Shown: positions 8,204 through 38,169 of the stretch, in pieces
Position numbering within the stretch: the first letter of the stretch is position 1
Layout: each line of letters opens with the position of its first letter
NCBI GenBank assembly: GCA_001781465.1
Contig: MFLD01000031.1
Coordinates: 1-40,505 of the forward strand
DNA length: 40,505 bases
Source: Candidatus Kaiserbacteria bacterium RIFCSPHIGHO2_02_FULL_49_16
GTDB lineage: Bacteria > Patescibacteriota > Minisyncoccia > Phycocordibacterales > UBA2100
Direction: 5' to 3'
Notes under the pieces: model-generated
The model's database searches: none
What the model saw: only the letters and a program-made list of their open reading frames with translations
What the model was told of the DNA's origin: nothing
Made by a program: the position numbers and the translations under genes

Positions 8204-9172
8204 ATGGCGCCCATGGCCGAAACACCTGCCAAGGAACAGTCTGGCTTGCTTTCAAATATTCTTGCGGTCGCCGGTTTGGTAATACTGCTGGGGATACTTA
8301 TTTGGGGAACCACTCATCTGGCGGCGCTTTCCGGCTCGTGGTTTTCATCGTTTTCATTCTCGTCCCCTTCTTCCTCAAAAACCATAAAAGTGACAGTGCC
8401 GACAAAGAAAATATCTTCCGGCGAGCAGTTTTCTGTTTCATGGAAATACAATCCGCGAAATGTCGGTACGTATGCGTTGCTATATCAATGTAAAGAGGGC
8501 TTTCAATTCAAGGCGACAGTAGCCGGGAACACGCCAGTTGCGATTCCATGCGGAATCGGATACACGATGCTGGCGGAAAACAACAAGTTTGACGTTATCC
8601 CACTTCTTTCTGGAACATCCTCGGTTGATGTCCAGCTTTCCATTATTTTTATGTCGAGTGCGGCAACCGCAACCGGCACGCCTTCGCAAGTGCGTGGAAA
8701 TGCTAAGGTGACGATTATCCATTCAACAAGCACGCTTCCCCAAGCGGCCGAAAATACCCCTGTCGAGAAAACTTCTATGCTGCAAACTGTTGAAACTCCG
8801 TCGACTAATGCTACAGACAGCCCAAATCTCTCCGTGCGCATTTTGTCCAAGGGCGTTATTGATCCGATAGGCGGAAACATTATTTCCCGAGAACCAACAT
8901 CGCCTAATGACCTAGTCTCGGTGCGGTTCCTAATTTCAAACGATGGCGGCACATCAACCGGCCCGTGGTACTTCACGGCCAAGCTTCCGACATCGCCGAA
9001 CTATCCTTACACTTCTCCCGCGCAAGCGCCGCTCAAAGCCGGCGGGAAAATTGAGAACATGTTGCGTTTCAAAAACGCTATTCCGGGAGGAGTCTTTTCC
9101 GTGACAGTTGACCCTGTAAACGAAGTTAAAGAATCAGACGAGGGCAATAATTCCGCGAGTACGAGTATCTAG
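8204..9172 (+). CDS. Membrane-anchored protein with a CARDB-like C-terminal domain
   Basis: 322 aa. It has an N-terminal TM helix (LLSNILAVAGLVILLGILIWG). The C-terminus has the CARDB-type signature (FLISNDGGTSTGPWYF ... VDPVNEVKESDEGNNSAS). Confidence 0.65.
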   Translation: MAPMAETPAKEQSGLLSNILAVAGLVILLGILIWGTTHLAALSGSWFSSFSFSSPSSSKTIKVTVPTKKISSGEQFSVSWKYNPRNVGTYALLYQCKEGFQFKATVAGNTPVAIPCGIGYTMLAENNKFDVIPLLSGTSSVDVQLSIIFMSSAATATGTPSQVRGNAKVTIIHSTSTLPQAAENTPVEKTSMLQTVETPSTNATDSPNLSVRILSKGVIDPIGGNIISREPTSPNDLVSVRFLISNDGGTSTGPWYFTAKLPTSPNYPYTSPAQAPLKAGGKIENMLRFKNAIPGGVFSVTVDPVNEVKESDEGNNSASTSI

Positions 9173-22604: not shown

Positions 22605-22751
22605 TTAATCCTTTACAGCATGACTGATAATCTCCAAATTGCAACTTTTATGTTGCTTGCACCACGCTTCGTATTTTTTCATCCATGATTCTTCCTTGTA
22701 AATTAGACCGCACTCGCGACAGATATATTTTCCATTTTTTGATGTATTCAT
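22605..22751 (-). CDS. 48-aa Cys-rich (zinc-ribbon-like) peptide translationally coupled to copA, not in the ORF track
   Basis: The ATG at 22751-22749 overlaps the copA TGA (ATGA). MNTSKNGKYICRECGLIYKEESWMKKYEAWCKQHKSCNLEIISHAVKD has CxxC ... CxxHxxC. Its TAA ends at 22605, abutting the next ORF. Confidence 0.55.
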   Translation of the reverse strand: MNTSKNGKYICRECGLIYKEESWMKKYEAWCKQHKSCNLEIISHAVKD

Positions 22752-25081
22752 AGTCTTTTTGTCTTAAGCCGCAACGAATTTCCGACCACGCTTACACTGC
22801 TAAAGGCCATCGCAAGCCCTGCGAACACCGGCGAGAGAAGCCAGCCAAATACCGGATAGAAAATACCGCTCGCGAGCGGAATGCCTACAATGTTATATAT
22901 GAACGCCCAGAAAAGATTCTGCTTGATTCCGCGCATAGTTAATTTGGAAAGCCGTATGGCTTTCACCAATTTTGAAATGTCTCCGTGAAGAAGCGTGATG
23001 CCGGCGGATTCTATTGCGACATCCGTTCCCGTCGCCATCGCGATTCCGACATCCGCCTGCGCCAATGCCGGCGCATCGTTTACTCCGTCTCCCGCCATCG
23101 CGACGGTTAGCCCTTGCGCTTGAAATTCTTTTATTTTTCTCAACTTGTCTTCCGGCAGAACTTCTGCGACAACTTCGTCAATTCCAACTTGCCTTGCAAT
23201 AAATTGGGCGGTGTTGTTGTCGTCTCCTGTCAGCATTACTGTTTTAATTCCGAGCGCGTGCAAATTCGCCACCGCAGAAACCGCCTCGGGCTTCACTTGG
23301 TCCGCAATCATCGCAACTGCCAGCACTTTTTTATCTGAAACAAGAATGACCGGTGTTTTGCCTTCCCTCGTACCGTTCTCTAACTGCATACCAAGGTCTG
23401 ACCTTGGGGATTCGGATTTAAGGTCAGACCTTGGTATGCCTGTTGCACCAACCTCCCACGCGAATTTGGCGCTCCCAACGCGGTACTCTGCGCCTCCGAT
23501 GCTACCAACGATTCCTTTGCCTTTAACCATTTCAAATTCTTCCACGGGCAAAAGCGAGATGCCTTTTGCTTTCGCATACGAAACTACGGCATGCGCAATC
23601 GGATGCTCTGATTTATTTTCAAGCGACGCGAGAATCGCAATTATTTCCGCATCGCTTTTTTTAGATAGATTCTCGAGCGATACAAGTTCCGGTTTGCCTT
23701 TCGTAATCGTCCCCGTCTTGTCCATTATGACAACTCCTACTTTATGCAGTTTTTCAAGCGTCGCGGCATCTTTGACAAGTATTCCCTCTCTCGCCCCTTT
23801 GCCAACTCCCACGATAATCGCTGTCGGAGTGGCAAGCCCGAGCGCGCACGGACACGCAATCACGAGAATACCGACGAAGGAAACAAGCCCGAAAGAGAGC
23901 GCTTGCGAAAACCCAAGGTATTGAGTTCCTATTGCGAGCCACGCGCCAAGCGAAACGAATGCAATAACAAGCACTATAGGAACAAAAACACCAGATATTT
24001 TGTCCGCAAGCGCCTGAATCGGCGCTCGGCTTCCCTGCGCTTCTTCAACCATTTTCACAATATGAGCCAGCATAGTTTCGGAGCCGACTTTAGTCGCCTT
24101 AAATGTAAACGAGCCGGTCGTATTTATTGTCCCCGCGACAACCGTGCCGCCGATAGTCTTTTTAACCGGCATCGGCTCGCCCGTTATCATTGACTCGTCT
24201 ACATAAGACGAACCCTCTGTGAGTTCTCCGTCAACAGGAATTTTCCCAGCGGGCTTGACGATTATTAAGTCGCCGTGAACTACTTGGTCTACGGGGATTT
24301 CTGTTTCTTTCCCGAGGCGCACAACCAGCGCTGTTTTCGCCTGCAAGTTCAACAGTTTTTCTATCGCATCGCCCGTTTTCAATTTCGACTGCGCTTCAAG
24401 ATATTTTCCCAGCGCGATGAAAGTGATGACAATAATGGTGACATCGTAATAAGTATTCTCAACATTGATAAAAGGCCGGAGTGTTTCTTCAAAAGCGGTA
24501 ATCACAAAACTGTAAAGATATGCAGCGGAAGTTCCAATGCCTATAAGCGTGTCCATGTTCGCCTTGCCATAGCGGAGAAAGCGATAGAATCCAAGAAGGT
24601 AGGGCTTCCCGACAACGAATAGAACATATGTCGCCATAAGCGGAAGCAGATGATGGAAAAACTCTTTCCATAGATATGGAACGGCGGGCAAAATCCCGAA
24701 TTGAGCGGAGATTTCCCAACTCATTACAAATACGCTGAAAATGGCGAGCGGAACGGCGGAAAAAACTTTTGCGCGCATGTCTGCGATTCCCGCGAGCTTC
24801 TCCGTCTTTGATTGGTTGAGTCCGAGGTGCGCCGCGTGCTCGCTTCCTGTCATACTCATTGACGCCGCCGTCGGTTGAACGAAAGAATATCCAAGCGGTT
24901 TTATTTTTTCCGAAAGATGTTCCGGATTCGTTTTTGTTTCGTCGAACGAAATTCTCGCCGCTTCAGTTCCATAATTCACTTCGATTGAATGTACGCCATC
25001 AACTTTTTTGAGCGTCTTTTCAATAATTGCCGAGCACGACGCACAGTGCATTCCCTTTATTTTATATGTGTGTGATGCCAT
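22748..25081 (-). CDS. copA: Copper-translocating P1B-type ATPase
   Basis: 777 aa with one N-terminal HMA domain (GMHCASCSAIIE), the TM CPC motif (ACPCALGLATP), DKTGTIT and GDGVNDAP. Confidence 0.95.
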   Translation of the reverse strand: MASHTYKIKGMHCASCSAIIEKTLKKVDGVHSIEVNYGTEAARISFDETKTNPEHLSEKIKPLGYSFVQPTAASMSMTGSEHAAHLGLNQSKTEKLAGIADMRAKVFSAVPLAIFSVFVMSWEISAQFGILPAVPYLWKEFFHHLLPLMATYVLFVVGKPYLLGFYRFLRYGKANMDTLIGIGTSAAYLYSFVITAFEETLRPFINVENTYYDVTIIVITFIALGKYLEAQSKLKTGDAIEKLLNLQAKTALVVRLGKETEIPVDQVVHGDLIIVKPAGKIPVDGELTEGSSYVDESMITGEPMPVKKTIGGTVVAGTINTTGSFTFKATKVGSETMLAHIVKMVEEAQGSRAPIQALADKISGVFVPIVLVIAFVSLGAWLAIGTQYLGFSQALSFGLVSFVGILVIACPCALGLATPTAIIVGVGKGAREGILVKDAATLEKLHKVGVVIMDKTGTITKGKPELVSLENLSKKSDAEIIAILASLENKSEHPIAHAVVSYAKAKGISLLPVEEFEMVKGKGIVGSIGGAEYRVGSAKFAWEVGATGIPRSDLKSESPRSDLGMQLENGTREGKTPVILVSDKKVLAVAMIADQVKPEAVSAVANLHALGIKTVMLTGDDNNTAQFIARQVGIDEVVAEVLPEDKLRKIKEFQAQGLTVAMAGDGVNDAPALAQADVGIAMATGTDVAIESAGITLLHGDISKLVKAIRLSKLTMRGIKQNLFWAFIYNIVGIPLASGIFYPVFGWLLSPVFAGLAMAFSSVSVVGNSLRLKTKRL
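23386..23439. repeat. Perfect 20-bp-stem hairpin (14-nt loop) inside the copA coding sequence
   Basis: GCATACCAAGGTCTGACCTT (23386-23405), loop ggggattcggattt, AAGGTCAGACCTTGGTATGC (23420-23439). It encodes the internally repeated IPRSDLKSESPRSDLGM. Confidence 0.9.
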
Positions 25082-25750: not shown

Positions 25751-25774
25751 GCGACGTCAGCTGTGGATACTGGG

Positions 25775-26740
25775 TTAAGGCTGTTGTACGCAGTAGACCG
25801 CGGTTGGAGTATCGTCGCAATTAATACCAGCTACCGTTCCATCAACGTCTGAACTTAAAACTGATTGCCCGCTATCACTTAATGTCGCCGCCAAAACGTA
25901 CTTGGTACATGGAGTCACCGCGCATACATTATTACTATCATTGAGGGATATATATGAATATGCGGCCCCAGTAGTAGGATCTGCGGGTATCGAGGAGATG
26001 TAATTATTGTTAACAAGATCCGAGAAAGATGATATGGGGTATGTCCCGGCTTCGACGTAATTTAGCTCGAGCGCGAGTTGAAGTTGCTTAATGTCGATAA
26101 TGCGGCGCGCATCAACTGATTTCATGCGCGCGATATTAAGACTTGCTAAGACAACCGATGAAAGAATCCCGATAGCAATGGGGATTAGAAGTCCTACAAT
26201 CAGTGCAACTACTATCCAGACAGTTTTTGACTTAGACGGGTCATTTTCTACGACAACAGTATCGGCAATCTTGTCGTGTAGTCCCTGCTTCTTACCTGTC
26301 CAAGCGACCATGAGGTAACCGATGCCAAGAATAATTGATGAAATAAATTTACCGACAACTTCTCGCAGAAGGGCCCGCCCAAGGCCGACTCTCTCTCCAT
26401 TCGCCCGTAGAACGCGCAATCCGACTGCCATTTTCCCTAGAGTCGCCTGATATGTCGTTATCATGAAAACCGCATACCCCCAAGGAATAAAAAGACTTAT
26501 CGCTGATTTCCACAACAAGCTTTCAGTCCCTGCGTTTGATAAAGAAATAAGAAGTTGTAGAACTACCAAGAATAATCCGTCGACAAAAAGAGCCGCTGCT
26601 CGAACCCAAAAGCCAGCATATTTAGTCGGAATGGCACCCGCAACGAACGCGGGCATTTGCGGTACAGTTTGCGGACCTGGCACAGAAAATTGAGGCGATA
26701 CACTAAAAGCAGAAGCAGGCGGAACTTGCTCATTTGGCAT
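25775..26740 (-). CDS. RDD-family membrane protein fused to a type IV pilin-like C-terminal domain
   Basis: YAGFWVRAAALFVDGLFL... is RDD-like. After the last TM the sequence is SSVVLASLNIARMKSVDARRIIDIKQLQLALELNYVEAGTYP, like the post-helix region of CPR type IV pilins. The track start at 26812 is TTG, and the ATG is at 26740. Confidence 0.6.
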   Translation of the reverse strand: MPNEQVPPASAFSVSPQFSVPGPQTVPQMPAFVAGAIPTKYAGFWVRAAALFVDGLFLVVLQLLISLSNAGTESLLWKSAISLFIPWGYAVFMITTYQATLGKMAVGLRVLRANGERVGLGRALLREVVGKFISSIILGIGYLMVAWTGKKQGLHDKIADTVVVENDPSKSKTVWIVVALIVGLLIPIAIGILSSVVLASLNIARMKSVDARRIIDIKQLQLALELNYVEAGTYPISSFSDLVNNNYISSIPADPTTGAAYSYISLNDSNNVCAVTPCTKYVLAATLSDSGQSVLSSDVDGTVAGINCDDTPTAVYCVQQP

Positions 26741-26854
26741 AATAAATTGTGTTAGCGTATATCCCACGAGTATACGCTCGTGGTGTGCATTGAACACATT
26801 AGACCGTCGCAACTGTGGAAAACCTCAGGCCTGTCCCATCATTGACTATTCAAC

Positions 26855-26896
26855 GTATGACTCTAGCTCGTCCAGCCGGACGAGCTAGAGTCATAC
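26855..26896. repeat. Perfect 19-bp-stem hairpin (4-nt loop) 3' of the DUF167 gene
   Basis: GTATGACTCTAGCTCGTCC (26855-26873), loop agcc, GGACGAGCTAGAGTCATAC (26878-26896). Confidence 0.9.
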
Positions 26897-26917
26897 CCAA
26901 CATCGAGCATCAGAAAA

Positions 26918-27139
26918 CTATTCCAAAATAGATAGCGTCTTGGACGGAGTGTGATGGTCGCTTATTATCCTCACTTTTTTTGCCGGTATGCCGAGACGCT
27001 CCGCTATTATTTTGATGACCCTCATGTTCGCAGAGTTTCTCTCCGCCTTCTCTTTTACGGATATCTTAAAACTAGTTGTGGCCATTTGTTCCACAACTTC
27101 TTTTTTCTGTCCTGTTTTCACCCGCACTTTTATGAGCAT
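26918..27139 (-). CDS. DUF167 (YggU-like) protein
   Basis: MLIKVRVKTGQKKEVVEQ...FKISVKEKAERNSANMRVIKIIAERLGIPAKKVRIISDHHTPSKTLSI. The track start at 27202 is TTG and would overlap the upstream gene. The ATG is at 27139. Confidence 0.65.
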   Translation of the reverse strand: MLIKVRVKTGQKKEVVEQMATTSFKISVKEKAERNSANMRVIKIIAERLGIPAKKVRIISDHHTPSKTLSILE

Positions 27140-27158
27140 AATCTGACGGAGAAAATGT

Positions 27159-27353
27159 TTACTGTTTCTTGAGAAATGTTTTGTATACGATGACTCCGTC
27201 AATAATCAATCCCGCGATGCCTATGAACAGCAGAAGAAAAAGGGCCCACCGCGGTAAGGTGTTGCCAGTGATGAGAGCGTACAGCGACAACAGCGCGATG
27301 CTCGGAAAAGCAATAAGTCCAAGGATATCGAAACTTTCGGGACGGACATTCAT
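27159..27353 (-). CDS. 64-aa two-helix membrane protein
   Basis: ATG start and two hydrophobic helices (ILGLIAFPSIALLSLYALI; ALFLLLFIGIAGLIIDGVIV). Confidence 0.5.
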   Translation of the reverse strand: MNVRPESFDILGLIAFPSIALLSLYALITGNTLPRWALFLLLFIGIAGLIIDGVIVYKTFLKKQ

Positions 27354-27558
27354 GTATTCATTGTATCACTTTTGTAGAAATCAAAGCGTGAGCTAGCACA
27401 ATCGGCATCCGCTCAAACTTATATACTTATCAGGCCCGGTCGGCCCCGATAAGTATATGCGTGAGAATCCGGAGCGGTTTTCTTATCAACACTCCAAACA
27501 ATTCCGCCGATATTGTGAGTTATAATACACGCGTAATTTAACAACTCTAATATTTTTT

Positions 27559-27792
27559 ATGGACAATACAAAAGTGCTGGTTGGGGCGGTTGTTGGAGTG
27601 GTTATCGGTCTTGTCGGCGGATATTATTTCGGGTACGACCGAGGCTGGGAGAGTGCAGTGACTGCGGCGAAAGCGGAGGCGGCCAAAGCTGTCGAGGCAA
27701 CAGTTAATCCGTTCGCGGATGTCAAAACGAATCCGCTTGAGGACGTAAAGACTAACCCTTACGAAAACGTAAAAACTAACCCCTTCCAATAA
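27559..27792 (+). CDS. 77-aa membrane-anchored protein with C-terminal VKTNP repeats
   Basis: TM helix VLVGAVVGVVIGLVGGYYFG, then DVKTNPLEDVKTNPYENVKTNPFQ. A TATAAT box lies at 27522-27527 upstream. Confidence 0.6.
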   Translation: MDNTKVLVGAVVGVVIGLVGGYYFGYDRGWESAVTAAKAEAAKAVEATVNPFADVKTNPLEDVKTNPYENVKTNPFQ

Positions 27793-27796
27793 CACC

Positions 27797-29776
27797 ATGA
27801 GTAACAAACTTGGCGCTTTCGGGGTATTCGCCGGGACTCTGCTCCTTGCCGGCGTCGCCTTCGCGCAGGAAAGCACTATTACTTTCCCTGTTCCAGAGCT
27901 CGGCAATTGTACGACCAAAGAGCAGTGCAAAACCTATTGCGACAACCCGACAAATCACGATTCTTGCATCGCGTTTGCGGAATCGCACGGACTGATGAGC
28001 AAAGAAGAAGTGAGAATCGCGCGCGCGGTCGGGACAGAGAAAGGACCCGGCGGATGCGTTGGACTCCAATGTAAAACATATTGCGACGATGAGAAAAATA
28101 TCGATGAGTGTTTAAGTTTCGCCAAAGAGCATAACCTTATTCCCGAAAACGAGATGGCGGTCGCGCGCGAAGTTCGAACGAAAGGGGGCCCCGGCGGATG
28201 CAGAAGCGAGAGAGAGTGCCGCGCGTACTGCGATGGCGACGGTCGGTTTGAAGAATGCATCTCGTTCGCCGAAAAACACAATCTCATACCGAAGGAGGAG
28301 CTGGAGCGCGCGAGAAAAGTCGGCGACAAGCCGGGGCCGGGAGGGTGCAGGCGAGAGGCCTGTAAGACATATTGCGAAACTCCGGGCCACATGGACGAGT
28401 GCGTTGCTTTCGCCGTGGAAAACGGATTCATGACGAAGGAGGAGGCCGAGATGGCTCGGAAAATGGGGGACAAGACAGGGCCGGGAGGGTGTCGCGGAGA
28501 AGCTTGCCGGACATATTGCGACGACCCTGCTCACGGCGAGGAATGCTTCAAGTTTGCCGAAGAGAATGGATTGATGAAACCCGAGGAAATCGAGCGCGCG
28601 AGAAAATTTATGAATAAACCCGGTCCCGGAGGATGCAAGGGTGAGGCGTGCAGGACATACTGCGAAGACCCTGCGCACGGAGATGAGTGCGTTGCCTTCG
28701 CGGTTGAGAACGGGTTTATGACCAAAGAGGAAGCCGACCGCGCGAAAAACTTCCATTCAAAAACCGGACCGGGCGGGTGCCGGGGAGAAGAATGTAAAAA
28801 TTACTGCGACAATGGGGCGCACTCGGATGAGTGTACGGCTTTTGCCGTCGAAAACGGATTCATGAGCAAAGAGGATGCCGAGCGCTCGAAAGAATTCAGG
28901 AATATGACCGGGCCGGGCGGATGCAAAGGTGAAGAATGTAAAACATTCTGCGACGACCCTGCGCACCGAGAGGAGTGCATGAAATTCGGCGAGGAGCACG
29001 GATTTGGTGGAGACCGCGGCCGGCAAGGGCCGCCGCCCGGCTCTGACGGCAGGAGAGGAGAAATGACCGGACCGGGCGGATGCAAATCCCCCGAGGAATG
29101 CAAAACCATGTGCGAATCTAACCCCGAAGCATGCCGTGGATTTGGCCCGTCTATAGGCGATTGGGTACAATCGGATGCCAGACTCATCGGCCCGCCATCA
29201 CAGGACGGAAGAGAGTTCGGCCAGGAGCGTGCTATGGAACGAAGAGGTTTCGAAATTCCTCCGGGACATATGCCTTGCCAATCCGAGGAAGAATGCAAGA
29301 AGGCATTCGAAAATAATCCAAACGCGTTTGGGGAACAACAAAGGGGAGAATTTGACCGGGGGCGGGAAACGGAATCGCGCCCGCCCGAAGGCGGGCGACT
29401 GGATGGACGGCAGATGATGAGACAGGAGGATTATCGCTCCGGGGAGACGCGCCAAGCGCCACCCGAATTCCAGAAACAATATGACACGCAGTATCAGGAA
29501 CAATACCAACGAACCGGCGCATCTGCGCAGCCTGTTCCTCAAATGAGCGGTCAGACGACGAATATGACACCAGAACAACAGCAGATGTATCAGCAATACC
29601 AGCAAACAGGAACAGCGCCATCCCCGTCCGCGCAGTACGCGCCTCCAACATCGTCCGCGACACCGCCGCCTCCTCCGCCATCATCCGAGTCTTCCTCACT
29701 TCCCCCCACGTCGCAAATAAATCGCACTGGTTTCGTCGCCGCAGTTCTCAACGTGTTCGGACCAATCTTGCGCTAA
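27797..29776 (+). CDS. Secreted protein with nine tandem ~48-aa four-cysteine repeats and a Q/P/S-rich tail
   Basis: Signal peptide AFGVFAGTLLLAGVAFAQE. The repeat unit is GPGGC(R/K)GE(A/E)C(K/R)TYCDDPAHxxEC(V/F)xFAxENGFMxKEEAxRAxK, with a DNA period of about 144-147 nt. The C-terminus is QQMYQQYQQ... PPPPPSS. Confidence 0.8.
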   Translation: MSNKLGAFGVFAGTLLLAGVAFAQESTITFPVPELGNCTTKEQCKTYCDNPTNHDSCIAFAESHGLMSKEEVRIARAVGTEKGPGGCVGLQCKTYCDDEKNIDECLSFAKEHNLIPENEMAVAREVRTKGGPGGCRSERECRAYCDGDGRFEECISFAEKHNLIPKEELERARKVGDKPGPGGCRREACKTYCETPGHMDECVAFAVENGFMTKEEAEMARKMGDKTGPGGCRGEACRTYCDDPAHGEECFKFAEENGLMKPEEIERARKFMNKPGPGGCKGEACRTYCEDPAHGDECVAFAVENGFMTKEEADRAKNFHSKTGPGGCRGEECKNYCDNGAHSDECTAFAVENGFMSKEDAERSKEFRNMTGPGGCKGEECKTFCDDPAHREECMKFGEEHGFGGDRGRQGPPPGSDGRRGEMTGPGGCKSPEECKTMCESNPEACRGFGPSIGDWVQSDARLIGPPSQDGREFGQERAMERRGFEIPPGHMPCQSEEECKKAFENNPNAFGEQQRGEFDRGRETESRPPEGGRLDGRQMMRQEDYRSGETRQAPPEFQKQYDTQYQEQYQRTGASAQPVPQMSGQTTNMTPEQQQMYQQYQQTGTAPSPSAQYAPPTSSATPPPPPPSSESSSLPPTSQINRTGFVAAVLNVFGPILR

Positions 29777-31857: not shown

Positions 31858-31939
31858 GTTCGTGTATGTTATTTTCTTTGATTCTATAAGCACCACCTCG
31901 TCGCGCTAAAATCGCGTGTTTGCTGAACTTCAAACGGGG
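31839..31939. mobile_element. Copy E5: inverted-repeat element enclosing the rpsB start codon
   Basis: Arms CCCCATTAGAAGT (31839-31851) and ACTTCAAACGGGG (31927-31939) are 11/13 complementary. On the coding strand the arm reads ACT TCT AAT GGG (T S N G). Confidence 0.55.
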
Positions 31940-32041
31940 CAGGTGTCGCGGGAGTGTATCAAGAAAGCGATGATTTTGCAACCAAAATTGGAAAGGTGCG
32001 CTACTACGAGTTCGCGCACCTTTTTTCCAGAACTGCCGACA

Positions 32042-32302
32042 TCAAGCAGTCTGGACCGAAACGGGGTTCTGTTCTTCGGGTTGGTCGGTTGCCGTGCCGA
32101 CCACCTTCCAGAAACACTGATAGCCCGTCCGTAGTTCGAGAAAATAACGGGTGTTTCCTTCCCGTGTTTCCTCCTCGATTTTTCGCATTTTCCAGCCTTC
32201 CAGTGGGCCGTACACGCCCACGATGGAAAACTCTCTCTCCGACCCCGAGAACTGCCGGCCCAGCTCGAGTAGCTATGAGCCGCTCTCCAGTTGCGTAATC
32301 AT
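32042..32302 (-). pseudogene. Candidate small gene with a strong SD and an in-frame TAG at codon 10 (alternatively a 48-aa ORF from the ATG at 32188)
   Basis: The minus strand reads AAGGAGGatatagATG (ATG at 32302). The TAG is at 32275-32273. The same frame stays open to the TGA at 32044-32042 (…EFSIVGVYGPLEGWKMRKIEEETREGNTRYFLELRTGYQCFWKVVG…). A GGTGCGCG...CGCACC hairpin follows at 31998-32026. Confidence 0.3.
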
Positions 32303-32445
32303 CTATATCCTCCTTCTATGTGCGGAGAGCAAAGTAACCGTCGCAGTGACAGCCCTCGCTTTCCAGATGCAAACATACAGGGAAGTAAAAAAATCAACTC
32401 TCGGCTTGTGTAGTACATAAAGGCAGTCAGACTGCCCTTGTCCCC

Positions 32446-32470
32446 AAATTGGACATCGGATGTCCAATTT
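32446..32470. repeat. 25-nt palindrome AAATTGGACATC-g-GATGTCCAATTT, left copy
   Basis: Identical 25-mer at 37820-37844. Both copies are preceded by CCCCA and followed by T-rich sequence. Confidence 0.9.
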
Positions 32471-32477
32471 GTTATCG

Positions 32478-32584
32478 CTTAGGTTGGATAGGTCGAACGG
32501 CTCATTTCCGCCTTAAATGAGCCGTTTGGACTTTTAATCTCGAGCAGTTTTCGTGTTTGACAGGTTGCTGGGGGGGGTAGGATT
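32478..32584 (+). repeat. Shared ~106-nt cassette leader, copy 1 (long hairpin + TTGACA + poly-G + TAGGAT)
   Basis: It aligns with 33864-33969 apart from a few substitutions, a reverse-complemented 7-nt hairpin loop (CCGCCTT against AAGGCGG) and G8 against G7. Confidence 0.85.
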
Positions 32585-32613
32585 AGGGTATTAGAAATAA
32601 CCTCTCACCCTTT

Positions 32614-33057
32614 ATGGCGTTTGGAGCATTTCGTGGAATGAAGCAGAAACTCTTAAGAGATAACCCAGTGGTTAGAAAATTGGAACAAAATCCAGCCAGT
32701 GAGGCCGGTTTTAGTTATGATAAATTACTTGGTGAAATAAACGGTATTCCTGATGTGGGGGAAGGTACTAATCCTCAATACGCACCTATGAAAAAGTTAA
32801 AGGCATTGAGAGGTTTCATTTCTAGTTTCAAAGACCGAAAAGAAAGGAGTGATCTTGAGTTGGCTTTTGATAATCGTGCATCGAGGTTTTTTGAGAAGCA
32901 AATTAATGTGCCTACTTCTTCCGGCCCCCAGGGGCTTGAACGTGGCCGCTGGCTCGAAGCACGACTAGGGGGATTTGAAAGGGTTGTAGGTGCATTTCCT
33001 TTTTTCCGCGAGACCACCAGAGAAGACTTGTTAAAAAAGGCAAGGGGTCACGAGTAA
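32614..33057 (+). CDS. Orphan 147-aa protein (cassette 1)
   Basis: ATG start, no recognisable motif, preceded by the shared leader. Confidence 0.5.
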   Translation: MAFGAFRGMKQKLLRDNPVVRKLEQNPASEAGFSYDKLLGEINGIPDVGEGTNPQYAPMKKLKALRGFISSFKDRKERSDLELAFDNRASRFFEKQINVPTSSGPQGLERGRWLEARLGGFERVVGAFPFFRETTREDLLKKARGHE

Positions 33058-33210
33058 CGAGCGAATTTCTTGAAAATTCCAAGGGTAGTTCTTGGAGTGG
33101 CGCTACGCAGGCATATTTGTAATGATTTGTGATGGCCATAACCTCTGCCTCTAGAACCTCCGAACCTCCGGACAAAGATGGGTACAAAAGAACTGGGCTC
33201 GTACAGACGG

Positions 33211-33238
33211 TTGCGCAATTTTGTACATTTTGTACAAT
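33211..33238 (+). promoter_or_regulatory. Promoter of the antitoxin/MazF-like pair (leaderless geometry) with a TTGTACA operator repeat
   Basis: TTGCGC (33211-33216), 16 nt, TACAAT (33233-33238), 6 nt, ATG (33245). The spacer contains TTGTACAttTTGTACAA. Confidence 0.6.
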
Positions 33239-33244
33239 GCATAA

Positions 33245-33496
33245 ATGAAGATTCTGACAACGACCAGCGCGCGCAAGCGCATCGGAGACATCGTTGACCG
33301 CGCAAAATACCGCGGCGAAGTTTTTGGAATCGGCAGGCGCGACTCGATTGACGCAGTGCTCATTGGATTCCCCAGATTCTATAATGCGGCGCTTGACGAT
33401 ATCACGAATGTGAATGTATATTCCAGAAGCTTCGATTTTCTGGAGGGCGAGCCCGATATCTATTCCGCTTCCGATTTGAAGAAGCGCTATGTCTAA
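33245..33496 (+). CDS. Type II antitoxin (Phd/YefM-like)
   Basis: 83 aa. MKILTTTSARKRIGDIVDRAKYRGEVFGIGRRD... It overlaps the downstream toxin gene by 8 nt. Confidence 0.65.
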   Translation: MKILTTTSARKRIGDIVDRAKYRGEVFGIGRRDSIDAVLIGFPRFYNAALDDITNVNVYSRSFDFLEGEPDIYSASDLKKRYV

Positions 33497-33809
33497 AGGA
33501 CGCATTGTCCTCATCCCGTTCCCCTTCACCGACCTCTCGGGCCAGAAAGTGCGTCCAGCTCTCATACTGCACGCCTCGCGCGGCGATGATTGCATAGTCG
33601 CATTCATATCTTCGCGCATTGAAAAGAGAAATCCGTTCGATGTTCGCATATCTGCGTCAGAGGCGAACGGTCTAAAAACAGAATCGGTCGTAAAGGTCGA
33701 TAAGCTCGCGACACTGCAAAAGAAAATCGTTATCGGCGAGCTCGGCGTCGCGGAACAGACGGTGCGCCGCGCCGTTGATGCGGCACTGCGGAAATTATTC
33801 CGCATATGA
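33489..33809 (+). CDS. Type II toxin, MazF/PemK family
   Basis: 106 aa. GRIVLIPFPFTDLSGQKVRPALIL is the PemK/MazF N-terminal signature. Confidence 0.75.
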   Translation: MSKGRIVLIPFPFTDLSGQKVRPALILHASRGDDCIVAFISSRIEKRNPFDVRISASEANGLKTESVVKVDKLATLQKKIVIGELGVAEQTVRRAVDAALRKLFRI

Positions 33810-33863
33810 GGTTTAACCTCCGGAAATTGTGCACATGCCAAAGCATTTTTCATGCGGGGCTCA

Positions 33864-33969
33864 CTTAGGTTGGATAGGTCGAACGGCTCATTTAAGGCGG
33901 AAATGAGCCGTTCGGACTTTTAACCTCGAGCAGTTTTCGCGTTTGACAGGTTTCTGGGGGGGTAGGATT
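33864..33969 (+). repeat. Shared ~106-nt cassette leader, copy 2
   Basis: See copy 1. Here TTGACA is at 33943-33948, the G7 run at 33956-33962 and TAGGAT at 33963-33968, 6 nt before the ATG at 33975. Confidence 0.85.
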
Positions 33970-33974
33970 TGGCT

Positions 33975-34697
33975 ATGGAAGGATTCAAGTCCCCTTTGCA
34001 CGACGAACATGTGCAGGAACGGAATCGGTATTTAAAAGGGAAAGAAGTGGAAATGGCGGAAGCAACCCTCCAACGACAAGAGCTCGATGCGCAAATAAGA
34101 CAAAGGGAAGTAACTGCGTGGGATACGCTTGGCGCCGAAGACTTAAGACGCGGGATAATTTCTGGCATACAGAAAAAGGACGCTAATGGAATAGTCCGCG
34201 CCCTGGTTGGCTATGTCATTAAAGGGAAAGAATTATTTGACAGGCAAAATTGGAAGGGACCTATTGGCACAGGTGATATGCATCGACAGACACGAGATAT
34301 CATATTTGGCGGAGACGGCAGTATAGGTATTAGTAGCGCTCTCAAAAATGCAATTCCAGATGTTGAGGCCAAACAAAGAATAATTTCAGAAATAGAAACG
34401 GAATTCGAACGATTTGCCAATGAATTAATTAGAAACCAGTTGTCAGAGGTACAAAAACAAGCGCATAATGATGGGAGAAGCAGGGCAGAGGGATACATAC
34501 GCACTATAAGCCAGAGCAAAGAACCAACGGCGCTAGATAATCTAGAAAAAGAAGTTAGCAGGGCAGAAGCTTTGCAGTCATGGATGGGTATACACGAACA
34601 CCACTCTAGAAAACTGGGGGAGGCATTCTATGGCGGTAGTTACGGTGAATTTACGAGGAAACTTCAAGCGGCTTTTGCGGGCAGCGGCCCAACATAG
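33975..34697 (+). CDS. Orphan ~240-aa coiled-coil-rich protein (cassette 2)
   Basis: The ORF track starts at the TTG at 33969. The ATG at 33975 fits the leaderless geometry. No recognisable motif. Confidence 0.55.
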   Translation: MEGFKSPLHDEHVQERNRYLKGKEVEMAEATLQRQELDAQIRQREVTAWDTLGAEDLRRGIISGIQKKDANGIVRALVGYVIKGKELFDRQNWKGPIGTGDMHRQTRDIIFGGDGSIGISSALKNAIPDVEAKQRIISEIETEFERFANELIRNQLSEVQKQAHNDGRSRAEGYIRTISQSKEPTALDNLEKEVSRAEALQSWMGIHEHHSRKLGEAFYGGSYGEFTRKLQAAFAGSGPT

Positions 34698-34770
34698 AAA
34701 GATTGGAAACTCTGGAGATTTAACTTTGAATGCGCTCCACGGGTAGTCCTTGGAATAACACCAGGCAGGT

Positions 34771-35019
34771 CTATTTGTAGTGATTATTTATGTCGATGAC
34801 CTCGACTGTGTCGCGGTTAGTGTAACTAAAAATCGCGCGATACTTTTTGTCTATCCGAAAACTGAAAATCCGAAGATGCTTCGGCTCCAACAACTCGACA
34901 TTTAGACTAGGATGAAAGAGGTTGTGCTCGAAGAGTTTCTTTTGTTTGTTGAATTTTGCGCTAAGATTGCGTCTCTTTAGATACTCTTCGAGTTCGCGAT
35001 GAAGAGCAAGTATGCGCAT
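34771..35019 (-). CDS. RelE/ParE-superfamily-like type II toxin (putative)
   Basis: 82 aa, basic, with the pattern ...LRIFSFRIDKKYRAIFSYTNRDTVEVIDINNHY. It lies 3 nt downstream of a small partner gene. Confidence 0.55.
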   Translation of the reverse strand: MRILALHRELEEYLKRRNLSAKFNKQKKLFEHNLFHPSLNVELLEPKHLRIFSFRIDKKYRAIFSYTNRDTVEVIDINNHYK

Positions 35020-35022
35020 GCG

Positions 35023-35250
35023 TCAGTGGTTCTTGAAATACGAGGATCGACGAAGTCCCTTTTCTATGCTTTTGAGAAATGCCGCGGAGTAGAGCTTAGT
35101 GCCCCGAAACTCTCGCAAGATTTCTTTTATATCGCGTGTTGGCGGTGGACTGAAAATATCTTCACGCGCGGCAGAGACAATCCGCTCATAAGCTGTAGCT
35201 CGACGCCGTAAGGCCTCGTATTGTGTTTTGCTGATGGTCACTGTACTCAT
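35023..35250 (-). CDS. Putative antitoxin partner
   Basis: 75 aa, immediately upstream of and co-directional with the 82-aa toxin-like ORF. Confidence 0.5.
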   Translation of the reverse strand: MSTVTISKTQYEALRRRATAYERIVSAAREDIFSPPPTRDIKEILREFRGTKLYSAAFLKSIEKGLRRSSYFKNH

Positions 35251-35282
35251 ACATGCGCAATAATAACATATCCGGCAAATTG

Positions 35283-35291
35283 TGATACAAT
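35283..35291 (+). promoter_or_regulatory. Extended -10 promoter of ndk (leaderless geometry)
   Basis: TGaTACAAT (35283-35291), 6 nt, ATG (35298). Confidence 0.55.
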
Positions 35292-35297
35292 CTCGCC

Positions 35298-35906
35298 ATG
35301 AATGCTCACCACAAAAAAGAACGAACGCTTGTTATCATCAAGCCCGATGGAATTCAGCGCTCGCTCATCGGCGAGATAGTCTTGCGATACGAACGACTGG
35401 GCTTGAAACTTGTCGGCCTCAAAATGACCGTGCCTACCGTGGAGCAGATAGAAGGACACTATACTCTTGACCCGAACTGGAGGCGCGTGACTGGAGAAAA
35501 AACGATAAAAAGTTATCGCGACAAGGGCCTGAAGCCGCCGTCCGAAGACCCGCTTGCAATTACCGCGGTTATTCTCAAAAATCTCAAAAAGTACATGACC
35601 GCGGGGCCCGTTATCTGCATGGTGTGGGAAGGGGCGCACGCGGTGGAGTTGGTTCGCAAAGTGACAGGCGGCACCGAACCGCGCTCGGCGCAAGTCGGAA
35701 CAATTCGCGGAGATTTTGTCGTGGATTCATACATAATGTCCGACCAAGATGACAGGGCTGTCCGCAATTTGATTCACGCCTCCGGTTCTGTTCCTGAGGC
35801 GGAAATGGAAATCCCCCACTGGTTCAAGAAAGACGAGCTGATTGATTATAAAGTGACGCACGAAGATATCATCTACGGAAAAGAATTGGAGGGTATTTTG
35901 CCCTAG
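35298..35906 (+). CDS. ndk: Nucleoside diphosphate kinase (long form)
   Basis: ERTLVIIKPDGIQRSLIGEIVLRYERLGLKLVGLKM and NLIHASGS. It is about 50 aa longer than the canonical Ndk. Confidence 0.9.
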   Translation: MNAHHKKERTLVIIKPDGIQRSLIGEIVLRYERLGLKLVGLKMTVPTVEQIEGHYTLDPNWRRVTGEKTIKSYRDKGLKPPSEDPLAITAVILKNLKKYMTAGPVICMVWEGAHAVELVRKVTGGTEPRSAQVGTIRGDFVVDSYIMSDQDDRAVRNLIHASGSVPEAEMEIPHWFKKDELIDYKVTHEDIIYGKELEGILP

Positions 35907-36163
35907 TAAGAACTCGAAAGGTTTCGCGCACTGTCCACAGTTGCGTCCCTGAATGTCAGGTCTATAATTCAGGTAGCGACAGGTATAACACCTGCTGGTA
36001 AAACTTAGGGAGCTCGAATCGCTTTAGACTCCGGTCTGAATGCTGAGGGCACCCACCTGGTAACACCCAGGCTTGCCGTGCCTGCCGCGCCTTGCCGCCC
36101 CGCCCTTGCGGGGCGTTATGGCATCCGGATAGGCACTGGGCAAAAGGAATGTGCCCACTTTTC

Positions 36164-36192
36164 TTGACATATATTAAAGCTATATATAGACT
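36164..36192 (+). promoter_or_regulatory. Promoter of the RelB/RelE-like pair (leaderless geometry)
   Basis: TTGACA (36164-36169), 17 nt, TAGACT (36187-36192), 6 nt, ATG (36199). Confidence 0.65.
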
Positions 36193-36198
36193 ATACGT

Positions 36199-36465
36199 AT
36201 GACTACACAAGTTGTATTTAATATAGACCCGAAAGTGAAGGCACGCGCGATGGAGCGGGCCAAGCGCGAGGGTATTCCCTTTGCTTCAGTATTGAAACTC
36301 GCGGCGAAGGCCTTCGCGGAGGGGCAATTTTCTGTCGGGATCGTCGACGAAATCCTTCCCCAGAAAATGCGGCTTCTTGAGCGGGAGTCTCGGCTACTCG
36401 ACAAAGGAAAAGGCCGCCGTTTTTCTTCCGTGAAGGACGCTCTAACGTTTGTGGAGAATCTGTAG
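36199..36465 (+). CDS. Type II antitoxin (RelB/DinJ-like ribbon-helix-helix)
   Basis: 88 aa. MTTQVVFNIDPKVKARAMERAKREGIPFASVLKLAAKAF. Confidence 0.65.
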   Translation: MTTQVVFNIDPKVKARAMERAKREGIPFASVLKLAAKAFAEGQFSVGIVDEILPQKMRLLERESRLLDKGKGRRFSSVKDALTFVENL

Positions 36466-36468
36466 GAT

Positions 36469-36750
36469 ATGAGAGAGCGGGAACCGAATCGGCTGACATT
36501 CTCGCCATGGTTTGAGAAAATACTCCGAACGCTTAAAAGAAAGAATCCGAATTTGGTGCGTGCATTTGCAAAGCACCTCCCCAAGGTCGTTGCGAATCCC
36601 GAACTTGGTAAGCCGTTGCGGCATTCTTTGCGAAACTACCGCCGCATTCATATTGAAGGTTCATTTGTCCTTTTATATGAGATACGGGAACGCGAAGTAT
36701 ACCTGATTGACCTCGACCATCACGATAGAGTGTATAAAAAGTACTCATAG
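36469..36750 (+). CDS. Type II toxin, RelE/ParE family
   Basis: 93 aa. ...GKPLRHSLRNYRRIHIEGSFVLLYEIREREVYLIDLDHHDRVY is the typical RelE/ParE C-terminal half. Confidence 0.7.
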   Translation: MREREPNRLTFSPWFEKILRTLKRKNPNLVRAFAKHLPKVVANPELGKPLRHSLRNYRRIHIEGSFVLLYEIREREVYLIDLDHHDRVYKKYS

Positions 36751-36789
36751 TTTGGCATTTGCTGGCGTTGTAACGGGGGCAGGGCATAG

Positions 36790-36822
36790 AAACTCCGCGT
36801 CCGCGGGGTTTTTGTGTTTTTT
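36790..36822 (+). terminator. Intrinsic terminator after the RelBE-like pair
   Basis: AAACTCCGCG/CGCGGGGTTT stem followed by TTTGTGTTTTTT. Confidence 0.65.
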
Positions 36823-36861
36823 GGCTGCAAAAGTGAAGCTGAAACCCCCTCAGAAATAATT

Positions 36862-36890
36862 TTGACATGGATATTTAATGCTGTTATGGT
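36862..36890 (+). promoter_or_regulatory. Sigma70-like promoter of the solute-binding-protein gene
   Basis: TTGACA (36862-36867), 17 nt, TATGGT (36885-36890). AAAGGAG is the SD about 8 nt before the ATG at 36945. Confidence 0.6.
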
Positions 36891-36944
36891 AACGGCATCC
36901 TCATCATTTGATGCGGAAAGTCAGCAACCAAAAGGAGCATTTCG

Positions 36945-37691
36945 ATGCAAGCCGACTCGCGATCTTTGAAAGCCAAGAGTAGTAGTATCAGAGTACTAGC
37001 AACCGGAGCGCCGTACCATGGCCTGATGGACGTTCTCCGTGAATTTGAGAGGGCTACCGGCGCCGTGGCGTTTGTGTACAAGGCACCTGTAGGCAAAGCA
37101 CTGGAGGTTCTCGGTGGTTGCGTCCAGGTGGACCTCGTCGTTCTACCCAGTTCAGCAATGGAAAAAGCCAGGGTTCGAAACTGGGTCCGTGTTAGTGGGC
37201 CTTTCGTCGACCTTGGTGGATCAGGGGTCGGGTTCTTTATCGGCCCCTCGTGGGAAGGCCCCGCCCCAGACGTTTCGTATCGGGAAGGTCTGATGGAGGC
37301 ACTGGAGGCGGCAGAGAGCATCGGCGTCACCGATCCTAAACTCGGTTCAGGGGGACGTATCGTAATGAACGCCCTTGAACACTTGGGTCCGGATGACCCG
37401 ATTCGCCGCAAAATCCGGCTCTTTCCGTCTGGTGATGCGACGTTCAAAGCTGCGGCAGAAGAGCAGACGATGGTGGCGCTTGGTCTGGTCTGCGAGGGTC
37501 TGGCGACTCACGGGCTCGAACTGGCAGGCTCGCTTCCCCCGGGCATGAACCAAGTGACGCAGTATATGGCGGGAATGTCCCAGACGGTTTACGTCCAAAA
37601 CGAGGGACTCGTCGGCCAGCTGCTTGATCTGCTGAAACGGAGCCGACAAACCTTCGTCGCACACGGACTCGACGAAGAGCCTGACCAGTGA
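36945..37691 (+). CDS. Orphan ModA-like (type 2 periplasmic-binding fold) solute-binding protein, GC-rich, no signal peptide
   Basis: 248 aa. IRVLATGAPYHGLMDVLREFERATG..., VDLVVLPSSAMEK and GVTDPKLGSGG resemble molybdate/SBP_bac_11-type binders. There are no adjacent permease or ATPase genes. Confidence 0.6.
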   Translation: MQADSRSLKAKSSSIRVLATGAPYHGLMDVLREFERATGAVAFVYKAPVGKALEVLGGCVQVDLVVLPSSAMEKARVRNWVRVSGPFVDLGGSGVGFFIGPSWEGPAPDVSYREGLMEALEAAESIGVTDPKLGSGGRIVMNALEHLGPDDPIRRKIRLFPSGDATFKAAAEEQTMVALGLVCEGLATHGLELAGSLPPGMNQVTQYMAGMSQTVYVQNEGLVGQLLDLLKRSRQTFVAHGLDEEPDQ

Positions 37692-37819
37692 CATGGCAGG
37701 TGTGCGGAACCCCATGTTCTTTTTTTTCCGCAATAAGCCGTCCCGAGCCTGAAGAGAGGGCTGACAGGGGGCGACTTTTTCTTTTTTTAATAAACTCCAT
37801 TACACTGACTGCCCCATAT

Positions 37820-37844
37820 AAATTGGACATCGGATGTCCAATTT
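37820..37844. repeat. 25-nt palindrome AAATTGGACATC-g-GATGTCCAATTT, right copy
   Basis: Identical to 32446-32470. Here it is followed by TTTT and, 5 nt later, by the leu promoter -35 box. Confidence 0.9.
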
Positions 37845-37849
37845 TGGGC

Positions 37850-37878
37850 TTGACACGAAAACGATTCTCGCCTATTTT
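37850..37878 (+). promoter_or_regulatory. Sigma70-like promoter of the leu operon
   Basis: TTGACA (37850-37855), 17 nt, TATTTT (37873-37878), 6 nt, ATG of the leader peptide (37885). Confidence 0.65.
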
Positions 37879-37884
37879 GATGCT

Positions 37885-37956
37885 ATGACTGCACGATATT
37901 CAACAACACAAAAAGGTCTCCTTCTCCTTGCGCTTACACTACACTGCGAGGGGTAA
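37885..37956 (+). CDS. Leucine-rich leader peptide (23 aa) of the leu operon
   Basis: MTARYSTTQKGLLLLALTLHCEG. There are six Leu in eight codons (CTC CTT CTC CTT gcg CTT aca CTA). It sits between the promoter and a terminator hairpin upstream of leuC. Confidence 0.6.
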   Translation: MTARYSTTQKGLLLLALTLHCEG

Positions 37957-37984
37957 TCCTGTTGCTCAAAATCAAGAGAAAACA

Positions 37985-38016
37985 AGACCTGGCCTCTCGC
38001 AAGAGAGGCTAGGTCT
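37985..38016 (+). terminator. Attenuator terminator hairpin in the leu leader
   Basis: AGACCTGGCCTCTC-gcaa-GAGAGGCTAGGTCT is a 14-bp stem with one G.U pair, followed by GTTATATT. GAGGGG at the leader-peptide stop could pair with CCTCTC as an anti-terminator. Confidence 0.55.
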
Positions 38017-38059
38017 GTTATATTAGTAATAAACCCAGGTATGACAAAAGAGAAAACAA

Positions 38060-38169
38060 CCCCATTAGAAATCGCGGACGCGCATCGTCAAGAAATTGTA
38101 TGAACAGCAAACCAAAACAACATAATCGAGCTAAGAAACCAGCCAGTGCGCGTCCTATTTCTAACGGGG
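38060..38169. mobile_element. Copy E4: 110-bp inverted-repeat element inserted in codon 7 of leuC
   Basis: Arms CCCCATTAGAAAT (38060-38072) and ATTTCTAACGGGG (38157-38169). Its interior shares TCGCGG(A/T)CG(C/T)G(C/T)AT(C/T)GTC with E3. Removing 38060-38169 joins the ATG at 38041 in frame to ...GQTLYEKIWDAHVV. Confidence 0.75.

Follow-up and report, generated by a model that had tools for sequence, protein, structure and literature searches.

A duplicated hairpin and promoter-like leader precedes two unrelated orphan genes in a toxin–antitoxin-rich hot spot of a Candidatus Kaiserbacteria chromosome

We analysed a chromosomal stretch of 40,505 nucleotides (nt; contig MFLD01000031.1, hereafter the window) from a Candidatus Kaiserbacteria population of the Candidate Phyla Radiation (CPR) represented in aquifer metagenomes. 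In the window, two copies of a leader, each made of a long imperfect hairpin and a promoter-like segment, stand in front of two unrelated orphan open reading frames (ORFs), which we call cargo A and cargo B. The explanation that we favour, and rate as modestly probable, is a local duplication of a hairpin–promoter–ORF–trailer unit within an accessory-gene hot spot, with later replacement of the ORF body. The locus looks like promoter reuse in a toxin–antitoxin (TA)-rich hot spot, and not like a demonstrated switch or cassette machine. If this explanation is right, the locus is a clean, well-bounded case of a promoter or regulatory module being reused to drive orphan genes in an ultra-small CPR genome.

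The alignment of the two leaders (32475–32591 and 33861–33976) spans 117 columns, of which 12 are mismatches and one is a gap, an identity of 88.9% that was obtained by repeat search, MAFFT and BLAST. Five of the 12 mismatches are due to a flipped hairpin loop, and identity is about 93% when the loop is set aside. These are the only leader copies in the 40.5-kb window, where none is expected by chance, and the public collections scanned contained no others. At the 5′ side of the ORFs the homology stops exactly at the start codon, where the ATG of cargo B at 33975 aligns with an ATT at 32590 in copy A. The cargo ORFs themselves show no similarity to each other by BLASTP (E = 55), tblastx, blastn or hhalign (probability 0.5%), and their Smith–Waterman score equals the shuffle mean. 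The preliminary description of this DNA, drawn from the letters alone, had reported near-identical leaders ahead of unrelated ORFs, which is borne out at every level of comparison; its account of the reverse-complementary loops, the TTGACA and TAGGAT hexamers, the G8 and G7 runs and the 15- and 14-nt spacers is likewise accurate.

A second block of homology follows both ORFs. The similar trailers noted earlier are real and, at 68 nt with 75% identity, longer than the approximately 50 nt first reported. Read on the minus strand, trailer A at about 33113–33145 encodes EVMAITNHYKY, to be compared with EVIDINNHYK-stop at the end of the intact higB-like toxin; it is an 11-codon relic of the 3′ end of such a gene, now followed by phd-mazF. 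The relic indicates that the repeated unit once included the higB end, and it favours segmental duplication over two independent cassette insertions. At nine other higB homologue loci, the downstream sequence bears no relation to the trailer.

From these features we propose the following history. The hairpin, promoter, ORF, trailer and higB 3′ end would first have been duplicated locally, and the ORF body of one copy would then have been replaced, probably by homologous exchange through the conserved flanks. The second higBA pair would have been destroyed down to the 11-codon relic, with phd-mazF now in its place, and the start codon of copy A would have decayed from ATG to ATT. Divergence along the unit is uneven (about 7% in the leader, 25% in the trailer, and cargo that cannot be aligned), which excludes simple drift and is the reason for assuming a replacement. 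The order at the locus is rpsB (minus strand), a disrupted small ORF (minus strand), leader A, cargo A, phd-mazF, leader B, cargo B, higBA (minus strand), ndk, parDE, a solute-binding protein gene and leuC; coordinates are collected in Table 1.

Table 1. Positions in the window of the two leader–cargo–trailer units and the adjoining toxin–antitoxin genes
Feature	Position	Strand	Remarks
Leader A, long imperfect hairpin	32477–32545	+	Inner 14-bp stem 32494–32507/32515–32528; loop CCGCCTT 32508–32514
Leader A, promoter-like segment	32557–32583	+	TTGACA 32557–32562; 15-nt spacer ending in G8 at 32570–32577; TAGGAT 32578–32583
ATT aligned to start codon of B	32590–32592	+	In frame with cargo A ATG 32614, no stop between
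Cargo A	32614–33057	+	Orphan ORF, 147 aa, predicted all-helical
Trailer A	33077–33144	+	5′ part common to trailer B only; 3′ part is the higB relic
phd/yefM-like antitoxin gene	33245–33496	+	PhdYeFM, E = 1.2e-3; between the two units
mazF/pemK toxin gene	33489–33809	+	PemK_toxin, E = 4e-17; between the two units
Leader B, long imperfect hairpin	33864–33930	+	Inner 14-bp stem 33880–33893/33901–33914; loop AAGGCGG 33894–33900
Leader B, promoter-like segment	33943–33968	+	TTGACA 33943–33948; 14-nt spacer ending in G7 at 33956–33962; TAGGAT 33963–33968
Cargo B	33975–34697	+	Orphan ORF, 240 aa (ATG 33975), predicted helical
Trailer B	34735–34802	+	Overlaps last ~10 codons of the convergent higB-like toxin gene
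higB-like toxin gene	34771–35019	−	HigB-like_toxin match
Antitoxin partner of higB-like toxin	35023–35250	−	Pair orthologous to the one adjoining hairpin and ndk in relative L083

A relative, L083, provides an outside view of the cargo B unit. It shares 81% DNA identity with the window over 34766–36115 (higBA–ndk). Directly past its higB stop, L083 carries GGGGAAAGGGGGG and then the hairpin GGTCGAGCGGCTCATTT-CAGCCG-AAATGAGACCGTTTGG, so that hairpin, G-run and higB end adjoin, without the 41-nt TTGACA segment, the cargo or the 30-nt 5′ part of the trailer. With hairpin and G-run lying directly against higBA–ndk, the cargo B unit is an insertion or a deletion relative to L083: either it was inserted in the window lineage or it was deleted in L083, and a deletion could have used AGG microhomology.

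The preliminary description had viewed the locus as a cassette system with conserved boundaries and swappable cargo. In its strict form this would be a genuinely mobile gene-cassette system whose units have conserved ends (the promoter segment on the 5′ side, the 5′ part of the trailer on the 3′ side) and exchangeable cargo, and insert site-specifically beside a hairpin next to higB-type TA modules. Both units do lie between a hairpin and a higB 3′ end, L083 resembles an empty site in lacking just these parts, the cargo genes are compositionally foreign orphans, and the boundary of homology falls exactly on the start codon. The conserved 5′ and 3′ boundaries, the unrelated ORFs and the adjoining TA modules therein described hold up; the multi-member system does not, as there is no further leader copy in the window or the collections scanned, the cargo genes are singletons and no recombinase occurs in the scanned ORFs. 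Two copies are known, scans with both hairpin and leader having given no more from public collections; leader and trailer lack terminal inverted or direct repeats, the polarity of attC core sites is not present, and the flanks are themselves duplicated, for which segmental duplication is the simpler cause. We consider a true cassette system unlikely, if not negligibly so.

The search for recombination enzymes applied Pfam to ORFs of at least 150 aa at 1–30,000 (omitting 22748–25081) and to the genes at 29.9–37.7 kb, and no integrase, transposase or other recombinase was found in the ORFs so scanned. The ORF at 22748–25081, which lies outside that scan, has a product that on L062 carries P-type ATPase domains. 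The locus is like an integron array in having repeated imperfect hairpins of about 70–120 nt between unrelated orphan ORFs with TA modules interspersed. It is unlike one in that the leaders come without an integrase in the scanned ORFs, although clusters of attC sites lacking integron-integrases (CALINs) lack one too, so a missing integrase is not by itself decisive. As to the core sequence, no RYYYAAC...GTTRRRY pair spans either hairpin, and the outer stem, 5′-AGGTT...AACCT-3′, has the opposite polarity. A single attC-type core pair does occur at 33811–33875, upstream of leader B, and fits chance by a rough estimate of about 0.25 expected per strand. Furthermore, attC sites lie 3′ of ORFs and their cassettes are usually promoterless, whereas here the leader homology is 5′ of the ORF and carries a promoter-like segment. 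This homology runs more than 100 nt beyond GTTGGAT to the next start codon, and does not stop at the crossover between G and TT as it would for attC; integron arrays also differ from the locus in that only two copies are present here. We therefore rejected an integron attC identity, for which the polarity and position of the core sites are wrong and no integrase is found in the scanned ORFs.

Other mobile elements were compared in the same manner. Direct and inverted local alignments of leader against trailer scored no better than shuffles, with no terminal repeats and no target duplications, and the ends of a transposon or of a miniature inverted-repeat transposable element were rejected on the lack of a significant inverted or direct repeat between the two. 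Like repetitive extragenic palindromic (REP) sequences, REPINs and Correia-type elements, the hairpin is a short palindromic intergenic repeat found at unrelated loci and able to carry or adjoin promoters and terminators. Unlike them, it occurs in one or two copies per genome fragment examined, and no REP-associated tyrosine transposase (RAYT) or other transposase was seen.

A further published parallel concerns upstream sequences. Putative mobile promoters have been defined as sequences of at least 80% identity over at least 50 nt upstream of non-homologous genes in one genome (Matus-Garcia, Nijveen & van Passel 2012; PMC3575422), and most of their families are pairs, with an average identity of about 92% (PMC3575422). 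The present pair falls within this definition: its leaders are 88.9% identical along 117 nt that take in most of the interval from −150 to −50 of both genes, and the neighbouring genes are not paralogous. The locus differs from such promoters in that a 3′ trailer is also common to both copies, the homology extends up to the start codon, the hairpin is dispersed and the higB relic leaves a footprint of duplication.

Each leader hairpin is strongly folded. The 71-nt RNAs reach −31.4 kcal/mol for copy A (z = −5.5) and −34.0 kcal/mol for copy B (z = −6.6), and none of 200 shuffles is as good. RNA of the plus strand folds 6–11 kcal/mol better than that of the minus strand (−20.3 kcal/mol for the minus strand of A) because the outer stem uses G·U pairs. 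A search of the leaders against Rfam, at gathering and permissive thresholds, returned noise only. A terminator scan lists copy A, with 15 pairs and the tail ACTTTTAATC. We regard the hairpin as most likely a terminator or insulator for incoming transcription.

The 7-nt loops of the two copies are exact reverse complements, and a stretch of 33 nt is 100% complementary between leaders A and B. The earlier interpretation was an inversion of the whole hairpin. The flip of the loop stands; the larger flip does not, since the outer stem, and likewise a G·T asymmetry at the foot of the inner stem, keep a direct orientation in both copies, which limits the inverted stretch to the 33-nt symmetric core at most. 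The flip is a real micro-inversion, and it would have arisen in one step by template switching (a quasi-palindrome event) inside this symmetric core. Template-switch inversions of hairpin loops, including 7–8-nt loops in bacteria, have been described (PMC8794818), as have small hairpin inversions in plastid genomes (PMC12928735). The present case is like them in that the loop is replaced by its exact reverse complement and the perfectly paired stem is unchanged, and unlike them in that it separates two paralogous copies in one genome and not lineages of a phylogeny. If our explanation of the locus is correct, it would be a textbook example of such an inversion between paralogues.

A second palindrome, AAATTGGACATCGGATGTCCAATTT (32446–32470), immediately precedes leader A on its 5′ side, and its membership of the leader module is uncertain. 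An identical copy at 37820–37844 lies upstream of a promoter-like site, TTGACA-17-TATTTT, before leuC, and a similar palindrome, CTTGGACATCGGATATCCAAG, follows a gene near position 1020 of the related contig L087.

Downstream of the hairpin, TTGACA, a short spacer and TAGGAT have the geometry of a sigma-70-like promoter, and we treat the segment as a putative promoter. A promoter scan lists neither site because their 14–15-nt spacers are outside its range of 16–18 nt. The TAGGAT of leader B ends 6 nt before the ATG at 33975, and the same spacing between a −10-like hexamer and ATG is seen at phd and at ndk (TACAAT 35286–35291, ATG 35298), whose TACAAT is kept in L083 and L086. This short distance suggests that the mRNAs may be leaderless.

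Since the G-tract lies within the promoter spacer, the preliminary description had proposed that slippage tunes or phase-varies expression. In the fuller form of this idea, slippage of the tract would shift the −35/−10 spacing, inversion of the loop would toggle a terminator, and cargo expression would turn on and off. One to three additional Gs would indeed bring the spacer to the 16–18-nt optimum. Homopolymer slippage in promoter spacers is a familiar mechanism in Neisseria and Haemophilus; one such contingency promoter is that of porA in Neisseria, whose spacer contains a poly-G tract. The locus resembles it in having a G-tract between −35 and −10, with a difference of one G between the two copies.

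We compared, at the level of assembly consensus, the groundwater samples of PRJNA268031, in which exact-protein look-ups recovered 17 loci; these lie on 16 distinct contigs and belong to 13 assemblies, all of one aquifer population. The loop reads CCGCCTT in leader A and AAGGCGG in leader B in every contig that covers a leader. The tract of leader A is G8 in all 10 contigs covering it and that of leader B is G7 in all 11, with no length variant in any of the 13 assemblies. With tract length and loop orientation identical across the 16 contigs, with G7–G8 at the low end for slippage-prone tracts (short in comparison with contingency promoters), and with a flipped loop that leaves stem stability unchanged, we regard phase variation as very improbable. 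We read the loop flip and the G8/G7 difference as fixed differences and not active switches, the G8/G7 difference being explicable by a single 1-nt slippage event. They are also a caution, because a G-tract in a spacer and a flipped loop resemble switches. The preliminary description had taken a finding of two copies only, no polymorphism in reads and cargo lacking conservation or coding signal as telling against its reading; at assembly level two copies and no polymorphism are what we see, and the cargo does carry a coding signal, as described below.

The population is nearly clonal, with single-nucleotide polymorphisms (SNPs) in mosaic patches. The leaders contain none, cargo A none and cargo B one, so that a ratio of nonsynonymous to synonymous substitution rates (dN/dS) could not be calculated for the cargo genes. 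An island bounded by 29-nt palindromes and free of SNPs across strains was considered and dropped, the SNPs lying in mosaic patches and at contig ends of an otherwise nearly clonal population. The assembly with locus L056 departs from the window at 22 positions, all within mazF (33497–33769), and matches it on either flank, which points to recombination with a different mazF allele or a paralogue, or else to a chimeric assembly.

The hairpin is not restricted to the window. A scan with the stem and any loop in 185,579 species genomes gave 51 loci, mostly unrelated terminators, among which L040 (Kaiserbacteria) and L051 share both stem and loop with the window, together with some of the left flank (AGGTCGAAC...). 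Scanning metagenomes with stem and loop added three loci, L069, L070 and L071. The hairpin lies between divergent genes in L040 and L070, between tandem genes in L071 and between convergent genes in L083. The core recurs at unrelated intergenic sites of related genomes, among which both loop orientations occur. Its copy number is low, with two in the window and single exact matches per related assembly. The arm 8-mer ACGGCTCA is not enriched outside hairpins, which ruled it out as an abundant motif resembling an uptake signal. Spread across phyla was also rejected: the 'Saccharibacteria' label of L051 is probably wrong, as the assembly has an ndk in the same 90%-identity cluster as that of the window, in the same gene order. 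When L069 (1–75) and L051 (640–727), from the same groundwater site, are compared, loop, 3′ arm and 3′ flank are common and the sequences differ from within the left arm outward; the cause is a rearrangement breakpoint within the hairpin or else an artefact of the assembly graph at a palindrome.

Genomes with about 78% identity in their genes share a core that is 100% conserved along 31–37 nt, including the loop. Such conservation would fit a DNA site to which a protein binds, a mobile micro-element or a site of recombination. One possibility is shared regulation in cis, in which the 14-7-14 palindrome is the operator of a dimeric DNA-binding protein and selection keeps the leaders similar, the two orphans being co-regulated. 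A symmetric DNA site would make the loop flip neutral, conservation of arms and spacer across genomes in both orientations fits recognition at the DNA over the RNA level, and several copies (L040, L070 and L071) lie 20–90 nt upstream of promoter-like −10 elements. However, the hairpin is at gene 3′ ends in L083 and L033, no regulator gene is associated with it, and the spacer sequence of operators is rarely conserved. Such a role would also be compatible with a history of duplication and does not exclude it. We give an operator as the cause of the similarity no better a chance than the cassette system.

Alternatively, the cores might be targets of a tyrosine recombinase, similar to lox or dif, that as an inverted pair bracket an invertible or exchangeable 1.35-kb module of cargo A and phd-mazF. 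The pdif modules on Acinetobacter plasmids offer a comparison. The architecture can be read directly from the sequence, as each inner core has 13–14-bp perfect inverted arms around an asymmetric 7-bp spacer, as in lox, dif and pdif sites; the spacers are in opposite orientation, a TA module is inside the bracketed segment, and the core is kept from genome to genome, usually in one copy. Against this, colinearity with the window holds for all eight contigs containing both sites, with no inverted isoform among them, the scanned ORFs contain no recombinase, and the direct repeats, which take up more than 100 nt beyond the cores, are not predicted by this model. An invertible or exchangeable module of this kind is quite improbable. 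The broader proposal, that the 14-7-14 core is a recombination site (lox/dif-like, or a hairpin target in single-stranded DNA) for capture or exchange of promoter-equipped orphan cassettes beside TA modules, we regard as improbable; if true, it would amount to a gene-capture system of a new type in CPR bacteria, integron-like or pdif-like, in which the opposite spacer orientations are functional.

Returning to a local duplication with a terminator-like hairpin, several observations weigh against this account. The hairpin has no good U-tract: the tail of copy B has four T where the terminator scan asks for five, leaving this copy unlisted, and in L083 a G-run follows the hairpin. The complete conservation of the core exceeds what a simple terminator role would explain, and copy A, like the hairpins of L040 and L070, lies between divergent genes, where a terminator is unneeded. 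The 14–15-nt spacers are shorter than those of functional sigma-70 promoters as usually defined. The replacement or gene-conversion step is assumed, not observed. Lastly, the search for copies covered a 40-kb part of the genome and part of the public collections. The conserved hairpin core holds the residual novelty of the locus and is the part most worth following up.

Both cargo ORFs look coding by their sequence properties, despite their orphan status. With a codon model trained on confident window genes, the annotated frame is the best of six for each. GC content at the three codon positions (GC1/2/3) is 0.53/0.42/0.36 in cargo A, and GC1 exceeds GC2 in both ORFs, as in real genes. Stop-free runs of the same length arose in 3 of 2000 shuffles for cargo A and in 0 of 2000 for cargo B, and each open frame takes up nearly all of the stretch separating its leader from its trailer. 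GC3 (0.36 in cargo A, 0.40 in cargo B) is well below that of most host genes (0.41–0.62), which suggests a foreign origin.

Among approximately 5.8 billion protein clusters each cargo protein matches only itself, with no credible homologue. An exhaustive HMMER search with cargo B in 1.84 billion representatives gave one other match, P0003, which we rejected since its score is inflated by a five-fold repeated short motif and it fails BLASTP. Neither protein has a match in Pfam, PHROGs, PADLOC, PDB sequences or phage genomes. The structure and function prediction proposed at the outset assigned no family. AlphaFold2 (AF2), run without an alignment, gave an all-helical model of cargo A with moderate confidence (predicted local distance difference test, pLDDT, 64.5; predicted template modelling score, pTM, 0.55), for which a fold search found no match, and a model of cargo B of too low a quality for a fold search (pLDDT 51).

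The two units lie in a region where such genomes place new genes. The rpsB–leuC stretch is a hot spot that gathers TA modules and orphan genes. The LeuC of the window is in a cluster, at 90% identity or above, with a Kaiserbacteria protein; genes of the window include gyrB, pheST, trmD, rplJ, rpsB, tsf, ndk and leuCD. In the relative L080, found through the Ndk cluster, rpsB-hicBA-ndk, a conserved non-coding element and leuC are contiguous, and cargo A, phd-mazF, cargo B, higBA, parDE and the solute-binding protein of the window are absent. Because all the extra modules of the window are missing in L080, the rpsB–ndk–leuC interval (31897–38099 in the window, 7400–9000 in L080) is an insertion hot spot, for which L083 supplies the 'empty site' of the cargo B unit.

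In addition, parDE and the solute-binding protein gene are inserted between two short blocks, 36791–36822 and 37993–38031, that are contiguous in L080. In L083 (4532–7327) and L086 (1–1242) a TraG-like coupling-protein domain is encoded by the gene that lies upstream of the hairpin/ndk region, a hint that an integrated conjugative element may occupy this hot spot. The disrupted small ORF next to rpsB is a minus-strand frame at 32042–32302 of 87 codons, which has a strong GGAGG ribosome-binding site and is interrupted at codon 10 by an in-frame TAG. Pfam gives no match to it, the gene predictions of the assemblies list no gene at the site, and it is likely a pseudogene.

The non-coding element downstream of ndk lies at 35975–36140 on the plus strand of the window, at 8707–8877 in L080, at 4062–4218 in L086 and at approximately 8700–8847 in L083. 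It is 89% identical between relatives whose coding DNA is 77–81% identical, and has its own TATAAT, a multi-stem fold with five compensatory pairs and a GC-rich terminator hairpin, with no match in Rfam. We consider it a candidate for a new small RNA of Kaiserbacteria.

Upstream of the locus, a 659-aa ORF at 27797–29776 (plus strand) carries roughly five tandem repeats of 144 nt (48 codons), in which Cys-containing motifs are conserved, and has no convincing Pfam match. Between about 25700 and 32500 the GC skew turns from negative to positive, and the genes switch from the minus to the plus orientation. Of 15 DnaA-box-like 9-mers with no more than one mismatch, five lie together at 25762–27491, near a gene-poor kilobase at 26813–27796, and this region may be a replication origin.

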